Shown here: piece after piece, positions 1-63,570 of the stretch | How the letters are laid out: every line of letters begins with the position of its first letter | Numbering within the stretch: the stretch's first letter is position 1 | IMG/VR virus record: IMGVR_UViG_3300042397_001048 | Direction: 5' to 3' (one strand) | Length of the DNA stretch: 64,000 nucleotides | DNA from: an uncultured virus (IMG/VR IMGVR_UViG_3300042397_001048) | Lineage: Duplodnaviria; Heunggongvirae; Uroviricota; Caudoviricetes; Crassvirales | Position numbers and translations under genes: made by a program | The notes under the pieces: generated by a model | Told to the model about the DNA's origin: nothing | Seen by the model: the letters and a program-made list of their open reading frames with translations, nothing else | The model's database searches: none

Positions 1-3000
1 TATAATCCATAGCCTGGTTCAATCCTAAAAGAGTTACATATTCTAATTGATTAGGAATAGGAGCAATAAATTCGAAAATACTTTTGCCTACAAATAACTC
101 ATCATTCCATTTTTCCCTAGTAGATGTACTACGTACAAATGGCATAGCTTTACCAATCGCATCTAAAATGCCATCAGTTTTTTCATCTTCAGGCTCATCG
201 TATCCGATGGCTGCGTAAGCTGCTGCTAATAACAAGCCACCAATTAAACTTTGGATAGTTTGGAATGTATATGCTTCAAGCATTCCAGATGCAAAAGATT
301 GAGCAGCTTTTACCTTGTCGGATTGACTAGAAGTCTTTGAAGTCATAATCGTAATATTACGATTGTTCTTATCCTTTAAGTTAAACTGGTAAGAAGCAAA
401 AGGGAATAATAACTGACGAATGATTTTAGTACTTGCATCTTTTGATGCTAATAACTTACCTCCCAATTCAGCTACGTTCATATTTTGCTGATCTTGAACC
501 ATGAATTCTGCATAGTCAGCGGCCTCCTCATTTAACTTATGATTAGCCCAATCAAATGTAGACATATCTACTCCCATTGATTTTAACTTGCTTCTATAGT
601 AACCAAGCCATGCCATATTAGCAACAAATACGTCAGGATTTTTTAAGAATAACTCAATGTATTTATCACCTAATTTTGATAATTCTTCAGATATATTACC
701 AACCTTACCTTGATTAGCCCTATCTACTAATTTCTCAGCATAGTCAATTGAGGTCTGAGCTTCAGAACCACGCAATGATATACCATACCCTGAGTTGTCT
801 AAGAATGATATAGCATCTTTATCAAATATATCTTTAAAGCTCATTCCAAAGCTTTCTAAATCTCCAATCATATTGATTGCAGTATTAGTTACCATTGGTA
901 TTGACTGCTTAGGGGCAGAAGATAATGATCCCAAACCAATACGTGTACCATATCTACTAAGTGCTGTTGTGAACTTATTAAACTTCTTAGCTTCTTTACT
1001 TGAGTATGTATCTTGACGTTCACGTAAAGCATTTACGTTAAAGTTCAAACGCTTAGTAACCATTTGTCTATCATCAAAATCTGGGAAGATTTGTTTGTAA
1101 GCAGCTGATTGGGTATAACCCATAAACTGCTGAACAAATGGTGTTGTTCTTACGTCAACTAATGTTTTCTCTAAAGCAGAAATATTATTGTAATCAAAAT
1201 CGTAATCTCTCACACGATTTATTTCGTTATTCTTGTCTTTAGGTAAACCATCAATCTTTTGATTCTTCTTTAATGTTCCTGACTCTTCTGTACTTACTAC
1301 ATCAAATGCCATTTTAAATGTACCCTTAACTAACAAATCATCAGCCGTATCCATGGCCAATTTTTCATACATGTCAGGAGCATAGTTAGCATCTTCGTCT
1401 AATATTACATTGTAATAATCAGCGGCCATTTGCTTGAACTCAGGATAGTATTTCTTCCACATGTCCTGAATATCCTTAACGGCTTCTTGGTTAATTGGAT
1501 CAATGTACTGCTTAACCTCATCAATATTTTTAGCATCTTTTATTTTCTGATATACTGAATCATACATATCAGCTTTACCTACAGAGTCTTTCTTTTTTGT
1601 AGCACGAAGTGTATCAATAGTCATTGCCAATTGCTTCATCTTACGATCAAACTCTACCTTCACCTGTTCAGGTGTTCCATTTAGAATAGTTCTAGATAAG
1701 TCGGCAAAGATACCTCGCTCATATACATTAGATGCAGATTTAAAGTCAATATTATTTGGCTTAGTTTTGTCGTATTTTTCGGAATATTTTTTAGCAAAAT
1801 CATTTGCAATCTTTTTTCCTTGAACAAATCCACGTACAATACCTGAGAATCCAGAGTTCTTTAAGAATTTAATTCCCTTTGTTGTACTTCTAAATAAACC
1901 TGATATTAATGAGTCTGTTTTTGATATGTATACCGCTTCTAGGTTATTATATAAATCACCGATACTAGCAATGCCCGATAATATGTTACCAATAACAGCC
2001 TTATCAGTAACATCCTTTAGATAGGCAAGTCTTCCAATTATACCATAAGATAATGGGCGAGCTTGCATGCCAGATGCTGCATCTGTATCAGCATTCTCAA
2101 CACCTATATACGATCTATAAATAGCCCCCATACGGCTAGTTACACCATTAACAATAAAATTGTCTAACGATTCAACAGCATACAATTGTTGCTCTAAAGG
2201 GAGTGCCTCAATATCCATATCAGTAAAATCTTTGACCATATCAAAGTCTATATCTCCTCTATCTATTTCGCCATCCTCTAACATTTGCTTAACTGTTTCA
2301 GATAAATCAGCAAATGCGGCTTTTGTATATTCTCTTACTTTGTCAGACTTACTAGACTCTGCGTTGCTAGGGTTTTCCTCTACAGATGCTATGTATCTTT
2401 TGATTTCATCCAAGGACATATCTCCACTAATCAATCCAGATTCTACTAAATCATTGTATTTATCTAGCAATGAGTTTTTGGTTATCTCTTCTTGTATCGC
2501 ATTTTGTTCTGAAGCATATGCATCAATGTCAGCTAAGACTACTGGTATTTTACCAATAACTTCTCCGTTTTCAACACGTACATTTCTGACAGCATTAAAT
2601 ATTTCATTAGCACGATTAGTGTATTGATTAATATCATCAATTAAATTAGGGTCTATCTTTAAGAAATTACGTACAGATTTCTCTACATCTCCAATCTCTT
2701 TACCACTCTTTAATGTCTTACGTATTTTTCCCTTAAGTTTTTTTGCAGTAAGTAAAGATTGAGCATACTCTACATTGTCAGCAAGTCTGCTTACTCTATT
2801 TAACGCAGACTCTCTTAGTCTTGGATTAAGTAAGTTGGATGCTAAAGCATTTGTTACAACCTTAACTTGTGCCGTAGAAAATACACCTTTAGGAAGCATT
2901 GCTTTTATTTCATCAGCAACATCTGTTACAGCTTGCTTAAAATTACGCTGACCTTCTTTAATAGATTGATCTATTTCTTTGATTCGCTCATTAAGAACTG

Positions 3001-5155
3001 TCTTAGTATTAACAGTAGCCATTTGTGGCTTAGGTTTTAGTCCAAGTTTTTCAACTCCAGGAGCCTTCTTTTCTTTAACGCCAAACTTTTTATTGATATC
3101 ACGTAACATTTGCTCGCGAATTGTATCGTCAGCTTCTTCGTATGCAATAGTCTTTTGCATAAATGATATGCCTCCTTGTATGGCCTCTTTTCTTGGTCGT
3201 CCACGCTTTAATGCTTTATCAACAGCATCGACACCTTTTTGTACAGCATTTACTTGTTCTGTCTTTTGCTCTTCAGATATTGGTTCAGCAGGTGTAATAG
3301 TTTCAGTAGTAATCTCTTCAGTAGGAATAACTACTTCAGTAGGCGCAACTACTTCTTCAGTTTTAACTTGTTCAGTAGGAGCTTGAGGCGGTAATGCTGC
3401 TAGTTCTGCATCGTATTTGGCGTTAATATCGTCCTGTTTTTTTAAGTGTTCTTTTTGCCTATCAGACAACTCTTCATCAAAACTTATAGGTACTAATGGA
3501 AGACTATTTAACTCCTCTTGTCTTCTTTTTTCTATATCAACTACTTCTTGCCTTTGACCTTCTTGGGTAGGGACTTGAGATTCTGCTTGGGGTTCTCCTT
3601 GCGCCACTTGGACGCCAGCTCCGGCTTCTGGCTGAATAGGAACTTGACTTGTTGCTTGCTTTTGAATGGCATCTTTTTGTTCGTTTAATTGATTTTTCTT
3701 TTCTAATAAATCCTTTAATAATAAATCCTTAGCATCCTGATCCATTGATTCGTCATCAAAGATAGCTTTGGCTTTATTATAATTTTCATACAATTGATCA
3801 TCAATACTAACGACTTGTTTGATTTGATCGTCTGTCAAATTGTCCACGGCAGTTTGAGCCACACTCATCATTGATGTGTTCTGTGCTTCAAGGTCTTTAA
3901 TCTTATTATCAATAACCGTATTTACCTCAGGATTAATATCATCGCCTTTTTGGGTATTAAGCTCACTAATAGTTTGTATATTGTTATTTATTTTTTCTTT
4001 TTCAGCCTTTGGCATAATCTGAGTTGCAAGGTAATTTCTTGCACTACCAACAATCTGACCACCTGAACGAATTGTTCCTGCAGACACAGCTCCTGTAATA
4101 CCAGCATTTAAAGTTCTTCTTCCAACACCCCACCAATCAACATCTCGTCCATTAAGAACATCGTCAGCAATACCTTGGGTAGCTTCAGTTGCAGCTTCCG
4201 CTACAAACTCTTCACCCATATCCTTTGCAATTTCTTTTACAATTAAATCTTTATATCCACTACCTAAAATTTCTGCTGCTTTAGGATTTCCAAAAGCGGC
4301 TTTGGCAGCACGCCCCATAATTTTATTAGTCACACCTTGAGCAAATACTTCAGTACCCCCAGTAACGCCTGAATTCAAAAGATAATTTACACCTAGGTTT
4401 CCTTTTGTTTTTTCTAAGTCTTCAGCACGTTTACCTGATGCAGCAGCAATACCTACCAAAGCAGGAGATAATGCATACCCTGCCATAAATGGAACAGACT
4501 CAACTGTAGATTTTAAACCACGGTAAAGTATATTACCGACACCTTCGATTGAAGGATTACTTGCAAAGTTAGATATCTCATCAACGATATCTCCTTCTTC
4601 TTTTCTTGTTTTTTGATATATTTCTTCAGACCGCTTATTTAAATAGTCGGCTGCTTGGTTAGATATCTGTACGTTAGGAAGTGGAGAAACTTTAGATGTA
4701 GAATTAACAGCATTCCGTATCTCTTTTTTTGCAGCAGCAGGAAGTCTATTAAACTCATCGTTAAACCCAAATCCTGTTGAAATTAAATCAAGAGCATATG
4801 ACTGAGCCATCTCAGGCACCTTAGCGATATTTGCTAGTGTACTTAATCCTGCACCTTTAAAGGTGTTCCATAAATCATCTAATGCACTAACTTGTTGTTT
4901 ACCTTCGACAGTCTTAGGCTGTTTTGGCATGGATACCGAAGGACCAGTTATTACCTGACCTCCTAAACCCAATGAAGATTTCGGTTTGGCCTGTATAGAA
5001 GGACCACCCGTAGCTAAAGGATTTTTTTTTTTAATAGGTGCCGATGATTGGACAATGTCAAAATCAAAATCCTCTTCCACTGGAGGAGCTATTTTTTTCG
5101 CTTTACCCTTTGGATTGTTAAATACAATATCAAAATCTAAATCTTGCTCTTCCAT
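1..5155 (-). CDS. Giant internal virion (ejection) protein, >1718 aa, truncated at the left window edge; absent from the ORF track
   Basis: ATG at 5155 (MEEQDLDFDIVF...). I translated the 5' part by hand, and the frame is consistent at 3673 and at position 2. It follows two smaller ejection-like genes and contains DIEKRRQEEL...INAKYDAELAAL (about 3398-3540). Confidence 0.8.
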   Translation of the reverse strand, partial: MEEQDLDFDIVFNNPKGKAKKIAPPVEEDFDFDIVQSSAPIKKKNPLATGGPSIQAKPKSSLGLGGQVITGPSVSMPKQPKTVEGKQQVSALDDLWNTFKGAGLSTLANIAKVPEMAQSYALDLISTGFGFNDEFNRLPAAAKKEIRNAVNSTSKVSPLPNVQISNQAADYLNKRSEEIYQKTRKEEGDIVDEISNFASNPSIEGVGNILYRGLKSTVESVPFMAGYALSPALVGIAAASGKRAEDLEKTKGNLGVNYLLNSGVTGGTEVFAQGVTNKIMGRAAKAAFGNPKAAEILGSGYKDLIVKEIAKDMGEEFVAEAATEATQGIADDVLNGRDVDWWGVGRRTLNAGITGAVSAGTIRSGGQIVGSARNYLATQIMPKAEKEKINNNIQTISELNTQKGDDINPEVNTVIDNKIKDLEAQNTSMMSVAQTAVDNLTDDQIKQVVSIDDQLYENYNKAKAIFDDESMDQDAKDLLLKDLLEKKNQLNEQKDAIQKQATSQVPIQPEAGAGVQVAQGEPQAESQVPTQEGQRQEVVDIEKRRQEELNSLPLVPISFDEELSDRQKEHLKKQDDINAKYDAELAALPPQAPTEQVKTEEVVAPTEVVIPTEEITTETITPAEPISEEQKTEQVNAVQKGVDAVDKALKRGRPRKEAIQGGISFMQKTIAYEEADDTIREQMLRDINKKFGVKEKKAPGVEKLGLKPKPQMATVNTKTVLNERIKEIDQSIKEGQRNFKQAVTDVADEIKAMLPKGVFSTAQVKVVTNALASNLLNPRLRESALNRVSRLADNVEYAQSLLTAKKLKGKIRKTLKSGKEIGDVEKSVRNFLKIDPNLIDDINQYTNRANEIFNAVRNVRVENGEVIGKIPVVLADIDAYASEQNAIQEEITKNSLLDKYNDLVESGLISGDMSLDEIKRYIASVEENPSNAESSKSDKVREYTKAAFADLSETVKQMLEDGEIDRGDIDFDMVKDFTDMDIEALPLEQQLYAVESLDNFIVNGVTSRMGAIYRSYIGVENADTDAASGMQARPLSYGIIGRLAYLKDVTDKAVIGNILSGIASIGDLYNNLEAVYISKTDSLISGLFRSTTKGIKFLKNSGFSGIVRGFVQGKKIANDFAKKYSEKYDKTKPNNIDFKSASNVYERGIFADLSRTILNGTPEQVKVEFDRKMKQLAMTIDTLRATKKKDSVGKADMYDSVYQKIKDAKNIDEVKQYIDPINQEAVKDIQDMWKKYYPEFKQMAADYYNVILDEDANYAPDMYEKLAMDTADDLLVKGTFKMAFDVVSTEESGTLKKNQKIDGLPKDKNNEINRVRDYDFDYNNISALEKTLVDVRTTPFVQQFMGYTQSAAYKQIFPDFDDRQMVTKRLNFNVNALRERQDTYSSKEAKKFNKFTTALSRYGTRIGLGSLSSAPKQSIPMVTNTAINMIGDLESFGMSFKDIFDKDAISFLDNSGYGISLRGSEAQTSIDYAEKLVDRANQGKVGNISEELSKLGDKYIELFLKNPDVFVANMAWLGYYRSKLKSMGVDMSTFDWANHKLNEEAADYAEFMVQDQQNMNVAELGGKLLASKDASTKIIRQLLFPFASYQFNLKDKNNRNITIMTSKTSSQSDKVKAAQSFASGMLEAYTFQTIQSLIGGLLLAAAYAAIGYDEPEDEKTDGILDAIGKAMPFVRSTSTREKWNDELFVGKSIFEFIAPIPNQLEYVTLLGLNQAMDY
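3541..3672 (-). CDS. Nested 43-aa basic protein MPFKSKQQVKFLFSQKPELASKWRKENPKQNLKSLPKKVKGKK, in the +1 frame of the giant gene
   Basis: ATG...TAG ORF with an A-rich leader (AAACGAACAAAAAG-ATG). It resembles stand-alone MPFKS small phage proteins (recalled, not searched). Confidence 0.6.
   Translation of the reverse strand: MPFKSKQQVKFLFSQKPELASKWRKENPKQNLKSLPKKVKGKK
4914..5032 (-). other. Putative -1 frameshift or slippage site (A11) and 35-codon shifted frame
   Basis: T11 at 5022-5032 on the + strand. The -1 frame is closed upstream by TAA at the start of the run and reads SFSYGWSFYTGQTEIFIGFRRSGNNWSFGIHAKTA*. Confidence 0.5.
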
Positions 5156-5158
5156 ATA

Positions 5159-6673
5159 TTATTGATTTGTCCAACGTAATTTCTTGCCAGGATTTTCTCG
5201 CATAACTTTTGCTTTTACTTGTGCTGGTGTTATTGTTTTCCCAGTTTTGGCTTTAGCTTGTGCAATTGTCGCTTTTATATCAACATTAATTGTTTCCTGT
5301 GCTGCAGGAGCTGGCTTAGGAGATGGAGCAGGAGTTGGAGCACTTTCTTGATTTACTATTCCTCTTAATTGCTTGTATCTATTAAATTCAGAACCTGCTT
5401 GTAAAGCAGTTTTTTGTCCAAGTGTTTGGTAAAACTCTTCATCAGTATTTAATGAAGTAATTTTATTTCCTTTTGGATCAACTACATCAAGACCACCATT
5501 TTTATTTGAAACTAATTTTGTACCTGCTACTAAAGGATATCCAGCTTTAGATAAAGAATTTAAAATAGCTTTAGTATACTTAGTATTTGCTCCTCTTAAT
5601 TTAATATCTTTCAATACATCATTAACAAAATCTCCACTAGCTAAAATACTTTCCTCTCCTTGAGTTAACTTATCTTCTTTACCACCAACATTAATTCTAA
5701 TAGGACGTGGCTCATCTAATGTTTTAGTAAAACTAACACGCTGATCAATCTCTTGTTCTGCTAATACTTTAGCAGCCTGCTGTTGCTTTTCACTTAAAAT
5801 TGGCTGAGGTACGCCATTAATTAATTCAACTTTAATTAATTTTTCCTCTGTAATATTTTTATTTTTCAGTAAATCTTGTTTTTGATCCTCACTTTTATAC
5901 CCAACATACCCACCAACTGACGTTAAGAATCGTGCAGTATTTCTATCTGTAGAAGTAAGTTCGGCAATCTTAGTCTCTTTAGCTTTAGCAAAACCAGGAT
6001 TATTCTTAGGAGATATAATTGTTACATTTCCTTGCTCATCCTTATATGTACCAATACTCTTCATCCAGTTATTTAAATCCTCATCATACTTTACGTTTGG
6101 ATCAATAAAAGGCTTTGTACTAGTTAAAGTAGCGGGGTCATAAAAACTACTCTTAGAAACAATTCTCCCATCCTTATCATACTTAACATACGGGATTGTA
6201 CCATCTGGCATAACAAAGAACTCGCCATCATTAAAGTTAGTAGCATCTCCATACATTTCTGCATAGACAGTGCCAATATCAGAGACATCACCCTTAGAAA
6301 TAGCTGCTTTTATTTCTCCAAAATTAGCATCAATTACTTTAGAAGCAGAGTTAATATTATTTATTCCCGTTTTTAGGTTTGCTTTAATGCGATTAACTTC
6401 TCGCATATTACCAGTCTTATATGCATTTAATAAAGCGATTTTTGTGTTATCACCTAAATTACTAATCTTATCATTAAAAGAAGCGTTAGATGTTAAAGCA
6501 AAATCAGTTAACTTCTCCATGTCACTAGAGAAATTTTTATCTAGTTCTTGTTGAGTTCTCTTGTCTTCTTCTCTTTTGGCCTGGTCAATAGTAATAAAAC
6601 TAGTTACTAAGTCCTTAGTAATTTCACCGTAATTAACGGGGGCTGTAGCTACATATCCTGCGTATTCTGCCAT
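5159..6673 (-). CDS. Putative ejection/internal virion protein, 504 aa
   Basis: Long helical-looking ORF between the pilot-like gene and the giant gene; call is positional. Confidence 0.6.
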   Translation of the reverse strand: MAEYAGYVATAPVNYGEITKDLVTSFITIDQAKREEDKRTQQELDKNFSSDMEKLTDFALTSNASFNDKISNLGDNTKIALLNAYKTGNMREVNRIKANLKTGINNINSASKVIDANFGEIKAAISKGDVSDIGTVYAEMYGDATNFNDGEFFVMPDGTIPYVKYDKDGRIVSKSSFYDPATLTSTKPFIDPNVKYDEDLNNWMKSIGTYKDEQGNVTIISPKNNPGFAKAKETKIAELTSTDRNTARFLTSVGGYVGYKSEDQKQDLLKNKNITEEKLIKVELINGVPQPILSEKQQQAAKVLAEQEIDQRVSFTKTLDEPRPIRINVGGKEDKLTQGEESILASGDFVNDVLKDIKLRGANTKYTKAILNSLSKAGYPLVAGTKLVSNKNGGLDVVDPKGNKITSLNTDEEFYQTLGQKTALQAGSEFNRYKQLRGIVNQESAPTPAPSPKPAPAAQETINVDIKATIAQAKAKTGKTITPAQVKAKVMRENPGKKLRWTNQ

Positions 6674-6682
6674 GTTTATTTA

Positions 6683-7450
6683 TTAATTTGAAGGAATAGT
6701 AAATTGATTACTATTATTTGAAGGAATAGTAAATGGCGCACTATTTACAGCTGATGCAAATCTATTTCCTAATTGCCATTGAGGAATTTGTCCAGCTGGC
6801 ATTTGAATTGAATCAGGCATTTGGTAGCTTTGGGAAGCTACATTGGGCTGTGTTTTTGCTGCAGCATTAGGATTAACAGTCTGTGGAGTTTTTTTATTTC
6901 CATAAATATCTTGATAAGCATATAATTGAGCTGCACTAGACAACCCTTGAATTGCACCTAAAGTGCCTTGTGCTTTGGCTTGTCTTCCCTCGGCACCAGC
7001 CGCTTGTGCTCCACCTAACTGAGCATTAACTAAGCCAGCTTGTCTTGCAATACGATCTGATTCTATTTGTTGAGCATTTTGTGCTTGCGCTAAATCTCTT
7101 TGATACTGCATCTGATCGGCTTGTGCTGCCAATTGTTGATTTTGTGCTTGTGCTTGTTGATTAACATTTGTTAAACCACCTAGAACCCCAGCAGCACCAG
7201 ACTCTTTAAGAGCTTGAATTTGTGATTGCTGCCAAGCTTGCATATTTTGTGTAGCCAACTCTAAACCTAGAGTAGGTACATTTAAAGCAGCAAACTTATC
7301 TAACTCAGCAAGACGTTTTGCATCTTGAGCTGCAGTAGCTGCTGCCTCATTAGCTTTTGCCTCTGCTTTTGAGCCTTGAATGCCCTGATATACCGACATC
7401 CCTGTACCTACTGCTGCTAAACCTAAACTGATTGCCGTTGCTACTCCCAT
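6683..7450 (-). CDS. Putative ejection (pilot-like) protein, 255 aa
   Basis: Gly/Ala hydrophobic N-terminus (MGVATAISLGLAAVGTG) followed by a Gln/Ala-rich coiled coil. Confidence 0.65.
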   Translation of the reverse strand: MGVATAISLGLAAVGTGMSVYQGIQGSKAEAKANEAAATAAQDAKRLAELDKFAALNVPTLGLELATQNMQAWQQSQIQALKESGAAGVLGGLTNVNQQAQAQNQQLAAQADQMQYQRDLAQAQNAQQIESDRIARQAGLVNAQLGGAQAAGAEGRQAKAQGTLGAIQGLSSAAQLYAYQDIYGNKKTPQTVNPNAAAKTQPNVASQSYQMPDSIQMPAGQIPQWQLGNRFASAVNSAPFTIPSNNSNQFTIPSN

Positions 7451-7451
7451 A

Positions 7452-7859
7452 TTATAAAAATTTTATCATTTCTGTTGCCCCTTCTTGGGTCTTAATAAAT
7501 CCACAATTTTGGTACTTATTAATTAAATTTTGGTTGGAGACAGATGTGAATATGGTTTTGTAACCTGCATTCTTACATGCTTCAACTATAGTATTTATAA
7601 GCAACTCAATTGCATCGTTTCTGTCTTTGTCTTTATATTGTTTGTTTGATACGATAAATTCGCACCAAGCTAAATTAGAATTAGTAAAGTATGCAAAACC
7701 TGCACATATATCTATCTCTCCTTTTGAAATCATAAATCCGCCAAGCCCATTGTTTGGCAAAGATTCCTTAGGTGGGGCAATCCATTTCCAATCTTCCCAC
7801 CAACCAATTAAGGTATCTTCATAGTCGCTGTCGTTTAGCAACCTAATATTAAATTCCAT
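7452..7859 (-). CDS. GNAT-like acyltransferase preceding the ejection genes
   Basis: IRLL...D N-terminus and LINKYQNCGF C-terminal GNAT-like motif; position as for T7 gp13-like genes. Confidence 0.6.
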   Translation of the reverse strand: MEFNIRLLNDSDYEDTLIGWWEDWKWIAPPKESLPNNGLGGFMISKGEIDICAGFAYFTNSNLAWCEFIVSNKQYKDKDRNDAIELLINTIVEACKNAGYKTIFTSVSNQNLINKYQNCGFIKTQEGATEMIKFL

Positions 7860-7876: not shown

Positions 7877-8602
7877 TTAAGAATATGATTTGAATACATC
7901 AGACGTAGCCATATACATTTCTGTATACTCTGTATCATTGTTAGTAAACTCAACTTCAAGATATGTCCCTCTTGTTGGACTTGACTCAGCAATACTACTT
8001 TTAATATAAAGAATAAAGCTACCAGCTGGAGGAAGAATTCCCGTTGGATTTACTGTTATAGTGTTATCTGTATGAGATATTATTGGCCCAGTAAATGTAA
8101 GATTTCCATTATTAACCCAATATAACTTATCACCAACACTTACAATACCTCCAATATTAAACCCAAAATTAAGTACATTAGCAGTATATGCACTTACATT
8201 TCCTATGCCTTGTGCAGAAATCATTGATAAATTATCATCATCAGGATCTCTTCTTATGTAAGCATACCATGTTCCTTCTTTTAATTCGTAATAATCTTGA
8301 TTTATAAATCCAGAACCTTGGTCAGACAAAACAGTTGTTGCCCATGGAGTAGTTGAGTTTGTAGCAATTGTTTTAAACTGCTTAGTCTGAGATGGCTCGT
8401 TATTAAATATAGTTGTTATTTTGGAAGGGTAAATTGTTCCATAATAACTATTTCTAACAGAATTGCTATTATGTTTATACAAATTTCCGTTCTTGAATGT
8501 ATATAAAGAGTTATTCATAGCCACCATCCATTCTGGAATGTATGAATGATATGAAGTCCAACCTCCATCTTTAGGAGAATATGTAATTGTATAGTTTGCC
8601 AT
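7877..8602 (-). CDS. Tail muzzle/stabilisation protein, C-terminal part encoded as a separate gene
   Basis: TITYS..GWTSYHSYIPE...YTFKNGNLYKH...FNNEP..KQFKTI...KEG.WYAYI resembles the C-terminal region of podophage tail stabilisation proteins. Confidence 0.6.
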   Translation of the reverse strand: MANYTITYSPKDGGWTSYHSYIPEWMVAMNNSLYTFKNGNLYKHNSNSVRNSYYGTIYPSKITTIFNNEPSQTKQFKTIATNSTTPWATTVLSDQGSGFINQDYYELKEGTWYAYIRRDPDDDNLSMISAQGIGNVSAYTANVLNFGFNIGGIVSVGDKLYWVNNGNLTFTGPIISHTDNTITVNPTGILPPAGSFILYIKSSIAESSPTRGTYLEVEFTNNDTEYTEMYMATSDVFKSYS

Positions 8603-8622: not shown

Positions 8623-9300
8623 TTATTTTATCTCTGACCAATAATCTTTATTTAGCTTTGGAGTTAAAGTTATAATGCCACTTTCTTTATTTGACCTGTC
8701 AGTAATTTCATAAATTTCTTCGTTTGGTATGTCTCCCATGCCGCTTATATGATACACCCCCATACCCCAACGATAAGCCATACTGTATCTACCAGAATCA
8801 CCGGTATATATTTTAGCATTTTGATGAAATGTTATATGATTATCTTCTCCTATTGATTTATCAATCCAATCTATTCTATTTATAAAATCACGACTATAAC
8901 AGTTTCCATTATTAATACTATCTGATAAATCTTGATATTTATTATTTGAATAAAAATAATGTTTTTGGCATCTGTAAACATCATAACCTGGATTATTTAA
9001 TATGTATTCATTCTGCAATGATAAAGCCCAAGGTGTCATCAAATCGTCATCGTCTAATCTATAAACATAATCTCCTGATGAATGCTTCATACCCCACTCC
9101 AACTTTAATCCTACGGACGAAAATCTAGGAGATATATTATATATTTTTATTTTAGGATGATTAAATGAATAAACTACATTGGGACAATCATTTACAATTA
9201 CCATTTCATGTTCACCATTATAATCTTGATTTAAGAAAGACTGTATTGCCTCCTCAAGTAAATCTTTACGTTGATATGTTAGTGTTAATACAGATATCAT
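8623..9300 (-). CDS. Glycosyltransferase family 2
   Basis: ISVLTLTYQR..LLEEAIQSFLNQDY..EMVIVND and RLDDDD motifs. Confidence 0.9.
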   Translation of the reverse strand: MISVLTLTYQRKDLLEEAIQSFLNQDYNGEHEMVIVNDCPNVVYSFNHPKIKIYNISPRFSSVGLKLEWGMKHSSGDYVYRLDDDDLMTPWALSLQNEYILNNPGYDVYRCQKHYFYSNNKYQDLSDSINNGNCYSRDFINRIDWIDKSIGEDNHITFHQNAKIYTGDSGRYSMAYRWGMGVYHISGMGDIPNEEIYEITDRSNKESGIITLTPKLNKDYWSEIK

Positions 9301-10892
9301 TTTGCTTTAATTTCTTCTTTTATAAAATTATATATCCAAGTTGATATAGAATATTCTTTATTTAAATCAATATCTTCAAACCATTCTTCTTTAGCATCTT
9401 TAGAATGCAACCATAGATGCGACAAATAAGGATATTTAGATATAATATTTTTATAGAAATAATAAGCAACTGATTGAGGGCATTTATAGTTACCCCATGA
9501 ATGCATATTTAAGTTTGGCAACGCCAACCAAATATCGCACATTTCTCCTCCATGTTCACATTTGTCCCAAAAAGAAGAAACAGATACAAAATCTTCAAAT
9601 AAATATAACAATGTTAATCCAAAATTCCACGTATCTCCATGTTCATTTATTCTTTTGTTACAAATATCATTAGTTATAGATTGCCAACTAAATGTTCCTC
9701 CAATATTAATTATATCTTGTGATGATGTAAATTTTTCACTTGTTATAATATCATTTATAAAACTTGACTTTGGTTCCCAGTTCTGCCAACAATCATTTCT
9801 AGGGAACATATTTATATGATCATAACCACGTATTTCTCTTGTATACCCAGGAACACATTCTTCATCTTTAATATTATTATAGAATGAAGTATGTGGGTCG
9901 TAAGAACGGCAAATTAAATTTTTCTTATTACTCATTTTATTAATACATACATCGTCTGTATCAATATAGCTACCACCAAACTTGTAAAGTATAATGAGTC
10001 TAAATAAGTCAGAGAAATCTCTTGGATGTATCGCCCTATATTTATCTATAGTAGATTGTGCTATAGGTATACCACTTAATAATGAATCAGTTAATTTTAT
10101 AACACGAACACGGCTGTCTAATTGAGTTGGTGAAATAGAATTACTTATTAAATATATAATTCGATCTGGATTAAATATATATGTTGAATAGATACAATTT
10201 TTCAATATCTCAAATCTTCTTTCCGATATATCTCCGTCCCAATAAAAAAAAACATTTTTTTCAGAAGGTGTTATTTCGTATTTATATTTTGATTCAAACA
10301 CGTCTATATCATTTTTTTGTATAAGAGTAAATTCATTTCTAATTGATGTTCTTGATACATTATCAAATTCAATATTTAAACCTTCTATATAATAAACATC
10401 ATTATGTTTAATAATCCAATCGTCACCACAAGCTATTTTTAAATCACTAGGAATATCAACCCAATCATGTTTTTTTAAAAACATACAGCATCCCCATCCC
10501 CATACCCTTTCATTAATTTTTTTTATTTCAAAATCTCCTTTGGGTAATTCTTTATTATAATTTGCTGTTGACATTCCAATAACCTTATCATTAAGGTTTT
10601 CCAAAACAAATGGTAAACCATCTACATCCCAATATAAGTCATCGTTAGATAAACATACGTTATCATATTTTGCTAATGACACACCAATATTCCATGCTTG
10701 ATTAACATATATATTTTCAGGCATTGATAATGTTATTACTTTACTATGATTTGTATTTGCTTTTTCCTCTGAAAGCCAATTGTTGTCAATTATTATTATT
10801 TCTCCAACTAAATCAGATTCGTTTAGTTTGTGTAGCAATTTTTCTAGATATACGTTTGCATACCACATTGTTGGTATTATTATTGAAAACAT
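9297..10892 (-). CDS. Two-domain glycosyltransferase: GT2-like plus GT32-like DXD sugar-binding domain
   Basis: FSIIIPT..EIIIIDN..NQAWNIG..LSNDD (GT2) and SDLFRLIILYKFGGSYIDTD (GT32/Och1-type). Confidence 0.85.
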   Translation of the reverse strand: MFSIIIPTMWYANVYLEKLLHKLNESDLVGEIIIIDNNWLSEEKANTNHSKVITLSMPENIYVNQAWNIGVSLAKYDNVCLSNDDLYWDVDGLPFVLENLNDKVIGMSTANYNKELPKGDFEIKKINERVWGWGCCMFLKKHDWVDIPSDLKIACGDDWIIKHNDVYYIEGLNIEFDNVSRTSIRNEFTLIQKNDIDVFESKYKYEITPSEKNVFFYWDGDISERRFEILKNCIYSTYIFNPDRIIYLISNSISPTQLDSRVRVIKLTDSLLSGIPIAQSTIDKYRAIHPRDFSDLFRLIILYKFGGSYIDTDDVCINKMSNKKNLICRSYDPHTSFYNNIKDEECVPGYTREIRGYDHINMFPRNDCWQNWEPKSSFINDIITSEKFTSSQDIINIGGTFSWQSITNDICNKRINEHGDTWNFGLTLLYLFEDFVSVSSFWDKCEHGGEMCDIWLALPNLNMHSWGNYKCPQSVAYYFYKNIISKYPYLSHLWLHSKDAKEEWFEDIDLNKEYSISTWIYNFIKEEIKAK

Positions 10893-62342: not shown

Positions 62343-63570
62343 GCTCCGAGATTACCAAAAAAAAATAGCTGACGATGGCGTTGATATCATAAATAAATAT
62401 GGATTACTTTATCTTGCTTTACAAGTACGTGTTGGCAAGACCATGACCTCATTAGCTATCTGCGATAAGTTAAAATGTGATGATGTTCTGTTTATCACGA
62501 AGCTTAAGGTTGTGCCAGGCATACAGAAAGACCACAAGGATTTGGGATGTAAGTTTAAACTTACATGTTTAAATTATGAGTCATTACATAAACTTGAAGG
62601 TTTAAATTTTGATGTGATTATTTGCGATGAAGCTCACACCTTAGGAGCATTCCCTAAGCCTAGCAAGCGTGCCAAGCAAGTCAAAGACTTAGTCAAGAAG
62701 TATAAGTCTAAAGTTATATTTTTGTCGGGCACACCAACACCTGAGTCGCATAGTCAGATGTACCATCAGTTGTACGTGCATCCTAACAACCCGTTCAAGG
62801 AGTATGTAAACTTTTACCGGTGGGCTAACGATCACGTGAGAGTGAAGATAAAATACATCGGAGCCATGAAGGTTAACGATTACTCGGAAGCCTTAAAAGA
62901 TAAGATAATGGAGAAGGTTAATCCGCTGATGATTACCTATACGCAGGAGGCTGCTGGGTTTGAATCTAAGATTAAAGAGATTGTCTATTATGTCCCAATG
63001 AAAGACTCGACGTATATTATGTGTGGTAGACTAAAGAAGGACTTAGTCATACAAGGTAAGGACGATGTAATCTTGGCCGACACAGGTGCAAAACTTATGA
63101 ACAAGTTACATCAGATGTACAGTGGAACCATCATACTCGAGTCAGGTAAAAGGCAAGTGCTTGATGACACGAAGGCTCAGTTTATTCTCAGGGCTTTTCA
63201 TGGTAAGAAGATTGGTATCTTCTACAAGTTTAAGGCTGAGTGGGATTTGCTTAAGAGTGTTTACGGTGATGACTTGACTGATGACCTGGAGGAGTTTAAT
63301 GCTACTGATAAGAACATTGCTCTTCAGATTGTCTCAGGTCGTGAAGGTATTAGCCTTCGCAATGCGGATGTGCTCGTGTACTTTAACATTGACTTCTCTG
63401 CTGTTTCTTATTGGCAGTCACGTGATAGGATGACCACTATTGATCGCAAGTTCAATGAAGTCTACTGGATATTTGCTAGGGGTGGTATTGAGGATAAGAT
63501 TTACAAGACTGTATTAGAAAAAAAGGATTATACCTTATCTTATTTCAAGAAAGATTTTTTATCTTCGTGA
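62335..63570 (+). CDS. SF2 (SNF2-like) helicase
   Basis: LRDYQ, VRVGKT, DEAH, LSGTP, GREGISL and QSRDR motifs. Confidence 0.88.
   Translation: MVKLRDYQKKIADDGVDIINKYGLLYLALQVRVGKTMTSLAICDKLKCDDVLFITKLKVVPGIQKDHKDLGCKFKLTCLNYESLHKLEGLNFDVIICDEAHTLGAFPKPSKRAKQVKDLVKKYKSKVIFLSGTPTPESHSQMYHQLYVHPNNPFKEYVNFYRWANDHVRVKIKYIGAMKVNDYSEALKDKIMEKVNPLMITYTQEAAGFESKIKEIVYYVPMKDSTYIMCGRLKKDLVIQGKDDVILADTGAKLMNKLHQMYSGTIILESGKRQVLDDTKAQFILRAFHGKKIGIFYKFKAEWDLLKSVYGDDLTDDLEEFNATDKNIALQIVSGREGISLRNADVLVYFNIDFSAVSYWQSRDRMTTIDRKFNEVYWIFARGGIEDKIYKTVLEKKDYTLSYFKKDFLSS

Follow-up and report, generated by a model that had tools for sequence, protein, structure and literature searches.

Can a single giant gene of an uncultured Crassvirales phage deliver two proteins from one start codon? 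The question is raised by a run of eleven adenines (A11) near the 5' end of a giant virion-module gene in a 64,000-nucleotide stretch of DNA, IMG/VR record IMGVR_UViG_3300042397_001048 (hereafter, the window, meaning the whole stretch analysed). The first-pass annotation of this stretch had proposed a -1 shift at the run, ribosomal or transcriptional, giving a protein of about 80 amino acids (aa) with an aromatic beta-type tail. Shift and product were strongly supported by a conserved run, a conserved -1 peptide and purifying selection in the -1 frame, and the trans-frame product very probably exists and is selected. The elements concerned are the following:

1..5155, minus strand: giant virion-module gene (cargo/ejection-type) in the 0 frame, with its ATG at 5155 and open to the window edge
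5033..5155, minus strand: shared N-terminal module of 41 residues, present in both products
5123..5149, minus strand: acidic repeat 1, E[QE]D[LF]DFDIV, residues 3-11
5051..5077, minus strand: acidic repeat 2, E[QE]D[LF]DFDIV, residues 27-35
5022..5032, minus strand: A11 putative slippage site, codons 42-45 of the giant gene
5031..5033, minus strand: TAA closing the -1 frame at the run start
4914..5030, minus strand: hidden -1 open reading frame (ORF), KKK plus a 35-residue tail and a stop (4916-4914)
4914..5155, minus strand: predicted trans-frame protein of 80 aa, net charge -6 in its N part and +6 in its tail

The giant gene has 1718 codons inside the window, and the full-length protein (P0001, 100% identical) has 1885 aa. 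Its codon 41 (ATT) is followed by 11 A (5032-5022) and then by TCC, just as the first-pass annotation had read the site, and this run is the longest homopolymer in the window. Both acidic repeats named in that annotation were also found in place, while the TAA that it had put at the start of the run exists in the window but does not hold as a general feature, its position depending on phase (phase-2 homologues have that TAA in the +1 frame). One A added at the run gives the 80-aa product, and one A removed gives 46 aa. As the hidden ORF contains no Met, Val or Leu codon, it has no ATG, GTG or TTG start of its own, and inspection of six loci by eye showed no Shine-Dalgarno-like word ahead of the run. 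The independent DNA run X3 (a contig from another study) crosses the A11 without a gap.

Stops made up 12% of the -1-frame codons across 27 window genes, so that 35 open codons would follow a random point 1.7% of the time. For the L043 tail, which is identical to that of the window, the frame was open in 2.9% of synonymous redraws with the 0-frame protein fixed, and it was open with as many aromatic/Ile-Gly pairs, a motif picked after the data were seen, in 0.05%. Aromatic richness alone is ordinary in the -1 shadow frames of the window, where many open segments reach 0.2-0.3 F/W/Y.

The conservation of the run was examined in 72 loci, namely 71 fetched loci and the window (some contigs present twice; L003-L006 left out). 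A run of A9-A12 occurred at codons 23-127 in 59 of the 64 loci with an intact 5' end, counting the window and duplicate contigs, with a mode of A10 and a preceding T in 38/44. Elsewhere in the same genes, runs of at least nine A numbered 3 in 373,512 nucleotides, all at one site in L036/L071/L072. The 44 distinct -1 tails were 12-51 codons long and consisted of repeated aromatic-Gly-hydrophobic units; when the synonymous 0-frame codons of these 44 tails were redrawn, 15.8 aromatic/Ile-Gly pairs were expected and 126 were observed. The openness of the -1 frame alone was weaker evidence (mean P = 0.12), and the +1 frame ran for 0-74 codons without conservation. At the protein level, KKK or [EQ]KK[NK] near the N-terminus was found in 78/85 close and 68/86 distant homologues (over 1500 aa), compared with 7% of background windows. 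The first-pass annotation had named homologues lacking the run, or with early -1 stops, as what would count against the shift; run and -1 peptide were both kept, and the proposal came through this comparison intact.

The five exceptions without A9-A12 represented two sequences. In L036/L071/L072 the run is interrupted by a G near codon 75 and the tail, compared with that of L028, has W replaced by C and F by G within the motif, as if it were decaying after loss of slippage. L035/L070 carry an A7 heptamer at codon 44 followed by a GC-rich stem (7-bp), a possible intermediate with a ribosomal-type layout on an all-A site. The N-terminal modules ahead of the run were unrelated between groups and swapped among near-identical genes, and unrelated double-repeat modules were exchanged exactly at the A-run (window vs L001, L046 and P0012; phi13:2 vs phi18:3). 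Four database proteins of 57-89 aa (P0214-P0217) had the fusion architecture in a single frame; each came from one contig and may be an assembly slip, so that they show the architecture and not its natural fixation.

Selection in the overlap was assessed on 17 non-overlapping pairs, with the same genes further downstream as the control. Substitutions at 0-frame codon positions 1/2/3 numbered 16/43/29 in the overlap vs 499/350/954 downstream (p = 2.5e-10), and those in the overlap were concentrated at the wobble position of the -1 frame. The ratio of non-synonymous to synonymous change (pN/pS) in the overlap was 0.34 in the -1 frame and 1.02 in the 0 frame, and the control was its mirror image (0.33 in the 0 frame, 1.49 in the -1 frame). 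Within the overlap, selection acts on the -1 frame and is purifying; the 0-frame segment that this frame covers is an S/P/T/G-rich linker that evolves neutrally.

The same peptide was also found behind another signal. Eighteen distant homologues lacked the KKK motif, and a profile of 14 rows, built mainly from KKK-less distant homologues, matched at least 591 IMG/VR stretches, of which 80 were fetched and 70 sister genes were examined (10 dropped as open-ended or short). Their N-terminal core was homologous to that of the window (HHalign probability 99.8, E = 6e-29), and upstream muzzle-type genes were common to 53-54 of the 70 loci. The -1 peptide occurred in 49/70 sister genes at E < 0.02 and in none in the +1 frame, and no run of at least nine A was present at the sister hinge among the rows listed. 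The 46 distinct sister sites comprised G_GGA_AAG (21), A_GTA_AAG (10), A_GCA_AAG (5), A_AAA_AAG (3), other A_AAG (3) and T_TTT-type (4) heptamers; A_AAG thus ended 42/46 sites under a site-picking rule that preferred A_AAG, four sites having been re-picked by hand. The background of in-phase G_GGA_AAG, a known shift-prone heptamer (PMC5009743), was 2 in 160,267 other codons. An unbroken helix of at least 8 bp starting 5-7 nucleotides downstream was present at 28/46 sister sites (22 at exactly 6 nucleotides), compared with 1.9% of shuffles and 0/44 poly-A sites. Among 29 of the 46 rows, picked for visible stems, 91% of cells were paired and 8/9 pairs had double changes, compared with 30-46% pairing in slid controls.

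As judged from heptamer and hairpin, the sister signal is a canonical ribosomal -1 signal, which establishes -1 as the shift direction, and one product would be reached by two recoding routes, as in dnaX. A giant-core tree built on 71 distinct rows (the core profile matched 79/138 proteins) grouped the signal labels and forced at least two changes for poly-A; with its long branches it does not give the number and direction of the switches.

A tblastn search with the giant N-terminus against cultured phages gave no match, and cultured relatives were reached via the portal; a search among longer proteins also found none. An in-frame run stands near the start of the giant gene in elemo gp90, phi38:1 gp101, Calle and Gundel (A10) and in MW202828 (A11), and each leads into an aromatic -1 tail. 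The hidden frame, as read from these genomes, is present but unannotated in cultured Elemovirus, Callevirus and Pachyviridae phages. A tail profile of 24 metagenomic tails, run on 17,838 six-frame segments, ranked elemo (5e-8), L092 (2e-5), Panino (1e-3) and four Pachyviridae (0.03-0.08) at the top; it was weak for Calle (0.29) and phi38:1 (1.0) and missed Gundel. By BLASTP, the cultured giant proteins had a weak or no match to that of the window, and the core profile found 5/6 of them. None of the 11 cargo-region genes of crAss001 and phi14:2 contained a run of at least nine A. The elemo record L093:1-10 starts exactly at the A10 run and six more records carry the hidden frame at the same record positions, which is probably where the assembler opened the circle.

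Five GenBank records, L079 (Panino), L081, L083, L084 and L085, have A9, with the giant gene broken up into one small and one giant ORF, or given a wrong start; this set includes phi18:3, phi19:3, phi13:2, phi46:3 and Panino. The A9 in these records is probably a homopolymer undercall, and the Cellulophaga phages were presumably sequenced by 454. As proof of polymerase slippage, the out-of-frame A9 records were set aside, since Gundel has A10 in the context of phi13:2, the IMG/VR matches for phi18:3 are the same four genomes, the nearest IMG/VR relative of Panino (L092) has A10 in frame, and Panino was sequenced by Nanopore only (PMC11590407).

How the -1 frame is entered was considered next to these patterns. 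From the one start of the giant gene, most ribosomes would read through to the 1885-aa protein, and a minority product would pass into the -1 frame at the A11 and stop 35 codons later, joining the acidic double-repeat module to an amphipathic beta-meander in 80 aa. The host RNA polymerase would insert one extra A while transcribing a run that matches its RNA:DNA hybrid in length; in sister lineages, a ribosomal -1 heptamer and hairpin would give access to this frame. The first-pass annotation had left the choice between ribosome and polymerase open; the evidence now leans to the polymerase for the A-run, with a ribosomal signal in the sister lineages. Polymerase slippage at the A-run is favoured with moderate confidence because a length of 9-12 is kept while the codon phase varies (0, 1 and 2 all occur), because no 3' helix of at least 8 bp is found at the poly-A sites (0/44 vs 28/46 sister sites, in a screen for helices without pseudoknots; the longest helix downstream of the window site is 3 bp), and because bacterial RNA polymerase slips efficiently on 9 A or T (PMC5009743), whereas ribosome sliding in vitro is weak on A9/A10 and robust on A11 (PMC4363877) and the family mode is A10. 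The A11 of tssM1 slips at about 20% (PMC4256274).

Several observations count against the polymerase. A_AAA_AAA, a valid ribosomal heptamer, lies inside every run, ribosomes slid robustly in vitro on runs as long as the A11 of the window (PMC4363877), ribosomal shifting serves the gene elsewhere (in the sister lineages and with the A7 and 7-bp stem of L035), the A10 of phi38:1 is followed by a 10-bp long-loop helix, and one contig from an RNA library covers the run (4932-5111) without a gap, contigs dropping rare variants. The same product could then arise at a ribosomal site, by tandem -1 re-pairing of tRNA-Lys on A_AAA_AAA or by sliding along successive AAA codons, with no stimulator, as in some tailed-phage shifts (PMC5009743). 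This is a lesser possibility, to which the ribosomal heptamers used by sister lineages for the same product, the potential intermediates with A_AAA_AAG (L150, L151, L157) or with A7 and a stem (L035) and the robust sliding on A11 (PMC4363877) lend weight; yet seven A's suffice for tandem slippage and 44/44 distinct poly-A tails follow at least nine, the phase varies, the hairpin is absent, and the modal A10 slid little in vitro (PMC4363877). That polymerase and ribosome both act at the A-run seems quite unlikely.

The run might also encode no protein and act as the U-tract of an antisense terminator, as an RNA element or as a recombination hinge, the aromatic frame being a shadow. Swapping of N-terminal modules at the run fits a hinge, and two shared words, TACGG and TTCGG, are similar to UNCG loops, but no conserved hairpin lies by the run on either strand (mean z = -0.58, 3/44 below -2), substitutions follow -1 codon positions, and the same peptide persists where a ribosomal signal replaces the run. 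This very improbable explanation is largely refuted. For the poly-A group, an antisense terminator, a UNCG hairpin and a stimulator on the 3' side were each rejected, no conserved structure or helix being found.

What the tail could do was approached through its predicted fold. AlphaFold gave three antiparallel strands (4-13, 16-25, 28-37) with a predicted local distance difference test (pLDDT) of 85.6; the faces read from the sequence carried F/Y/W/F, I/I/F and W/F/I/A on one side and mostly Ser, Gly and polar residues on the other, and the family kept a hydrophobic-Gly-hydrophobic-polar-hydrophobic pattern in the tail. The tail is thus modelled as an amphipathic three-stranded beta-sheet, and the model and the conserved pattern together bear out the alternating beta-type tail described in the first-pass annotation. 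An aromatic face backed by Gly/Ser suits, in this model, a lipid-facing oligomeric sheet. A tetramer prediction of the tail scored 0.30 and speaks neither for nor against an oligomer. Outer-membrane barrels inserted by the beta-barrel assembly machinery (BAM) carry a Sec signal peptide and a C-terminal aromatic beta-signal. The tail shares with them amphipathic antiparallel strands with an aromatic face; no C-terminal aromatic beta-signal was found in the tails, which end in varied polar residues.

The short product is tentatively favoured as a co-packaged ejection subunit that would share its targeting module with the giant protein, over an assembly adaptor or a lysis helper. By way of the shared N-terminal module, both products would be targeted to one site in the procapsid in a constant ratio. 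On ejection the short product would leave together with the cargo proteins, and its strands, aromatic on one face and backed by Gly/Ser, would oligomerise at the host envelope into a beta-sheet or barrel forming part of the ejection conduit. We infer slippage itself, its level, packaging and membrane insertion. The interpretation in the first-pass annotation stood for the shift, the short product and the beta tail; the product may be, as that annotation suggested, an ejection component inserting into the outer membrane. Speculative and unlikely is the wider proposal of a widespread virion protein of Bacteroidota podoviruses made by recoding only, a small subunit that would self-assemble into a beta-barrel entry pore in the outer membrane and carry the packaging tag of the giant protein, its stoichiometry mattering so much that lineages would have swapped repeatedly between a ribosomal heptamer with hairpin and polymerase slippage on poly-A.

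The following results speak against a conserved envelope-inserting subunit. There is no signal peptide and the N-terminus is acidic; many homologues have only a short two-strand hairpin, short for a membrane span; a Pfam search with the tails gave no match; and a fold search with the tail reached a best Z of 4.3 with a generic meander and no specific match. The run is lost in L036/L071/L072, so the product is not universal, and 21/70 sister genes (loci within L130-L175) were without the motif in their first 180 codons, where it may have been lost or may lie further downstream. An atlas search with the tail gave no match.

Two other roles were weighed against an ejection subunit. The short product could be an assembly factor like lambda gpG/gpGT, its module binding one partner and its tail another (portal, tail lumen or chaperonin), and the giant protein would be loaded in a set proportion. 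G/GT-type shifts share the logic and the G_GGA_AAG heptamer class, a one-faced aromatic sheet can bind protein and the tails are often short; in G/GT, however, it is the longer product that comes from the shift, and the gene encodes a tail chaperone in phages with long tails, whereas the gene here is a podovirus virion protein gene. Strict alternation of aromatic residues on one face, backed by Gly, also fits a sheet that faces lipid, and the assembly role is unlikely, though worth keeping in view. The tail could instead act late in infection as a cationic, aromatic beta-hairpin, perturbing the host envelope from within as a lysis helper or superinfection block, with the shift only limiting its dose. 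Its net charge of +6 with W/F/Y, and a likeness to beta-hairpin antimicrobial peptides that we presume, fit such a role, but positive charge is general in the -1 shadow frames of the window and the acidic shared module would be purposeless, and this role is improbable.

The window contained a podovirus-like virion module with TerL, portal, virion proteins, tail fibres and GroEL/GroES, and its DNA was found in lake metagenomes; its source is a freshwater Bacteroidota-type podovirus. The portal was 48-50% identical to those of Elemovirus and Maribacter phage Panino, 36% to Callevirus and 29% to Baltivirus/Bacelvirus. The giant gene ends the virion module in the cultured relatives examined, with the exception of Gundel (giant gene, small gene, TerL), and crAss001 likewise keeps its cargo genes at the module end, after the muzzle gene (PMC10172136). 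This position would suggest an ejection role for the giant protein, whose phi18:3 counterpart was annotated from virion tandem mass spectrometry (MS/MS). The giant core matched only unnamed atlas clusters, with an LPD22 lead on 29% of one cluster. Upstream of the giant gene lie:

5159..6673, minus strand: 504-aa gene, probable co-cargo protein (position, by synteny)
6683..7450, minus strand: 255-aa virion structural protein (phrog_13764)
7877..8602, minus strand: protein with a crAss muzzle C-terminal domain (PF25729)

The muzzle-domain gene sits three genes upstream of the 504-aa gene, and PF25729 ties the module to crAss-like virion architecture. Two glycosyltransferase-like genes (8623-10892) and a weakly GNAT-like gene (7452-7859) also lie within the virion module, which suggests virion modification. 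GNAT, PF18760 or PF02195 domains are added in the giant homologues P0035, P0042, P0063, P0064, P0071, P0074 and P0084, which we take to resemble polyvalent cargo proteins. A very basic 43-aa ORF with its own ATG (3541-3672, minus strand) overlaps the conserved DAIQKQAT stretch in the +1 frame of the giant gene and, with the -1 tail, would make two small genes hidden in the giant gene. An A9 run was also present at 62357-62365, near the start of a helicase gene.

The types of recoding involved are already known from dnaX, G/GT and tssM1. In dnaX (tau/gamma), Escherichia coli uses a ribosomal shift at A_AAA_AAG with a stem-loop, and Thermus thermophilus uses slippage of RNA polymerase on a 9-base run (PMC5009743; 10.1101/2022.11.10.516041). 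The locus resembles dnaX in that one gene has a long 0-frame and a short shifted product, reached by a ribosomal or a homopolymer route depending on lineage, and resembles Thermus dnaX in its coding-sequence homopolymer of at least nine A/T, independent of codon phase and of a ribosomal stimulator. Unlike in dnaX, where the shift only truncates, the new frame here is a selected domain of 12-51 residues, from a far 5' site in a phage virion gene. With lambda G/GT it has in common a phage morphogenesis gene and a low-level -1 shift that would fix a ratio, as well as G_GGA_AAG in the sister group. G/GT, however, extends a small chaperone between the major tail and tape-measure genes and its products stay outside the virion, whereas a giant podovirus virion gene here gives a short product, with poly-A as the signal in the lineage of the window and an additional hairpin in the sister group. 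Citrobacter rodentium tssM1 (A11) and Shigella mxiE/spa13/spa33/mxiA likewise make two length variants of a part of an envelope-spanning machine, at 15-55% (PMC4256274), but they are bacterial secretion genes with sites deep in the gene, and the accessible part of that report describes no conserved small trans-frame domain (PMC4256274). A further comparison is with the crAss001 cargo proteins gp45-47 and the T7/P22 ejection proteins: crAss cargo genes follow the muzzle gene (PMC10172136), and here a muzzle C-terminal domain is present in the module; the membrane element proposed for crAss001 gp45 is a helix, not a beta-sheet. A literature search that covered neither supplements nor most subscription papers found no paper on the site or its product. 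What is new here, on sequence evidence, is two interchangeable signals for one product.

The hidden frame is a gene missed by annotation in cultured model phages (phi38:1, Calle, elemo, Gundel and the phi18:3 group) and in numerous relatives from fresh and marine waters. Its product is a concrete small candidate for the crossing of the outer membrane by Bacteroidota podoviruses, and can be checked in existing phi38:1 transcriptome and proteome data. If true, this would be the second case after dnaX, and the first found in phages, in which different recoding mechanisms maintain a single pair of products, and, with two mechanisms spread across lineages, the switch between them could be studied.

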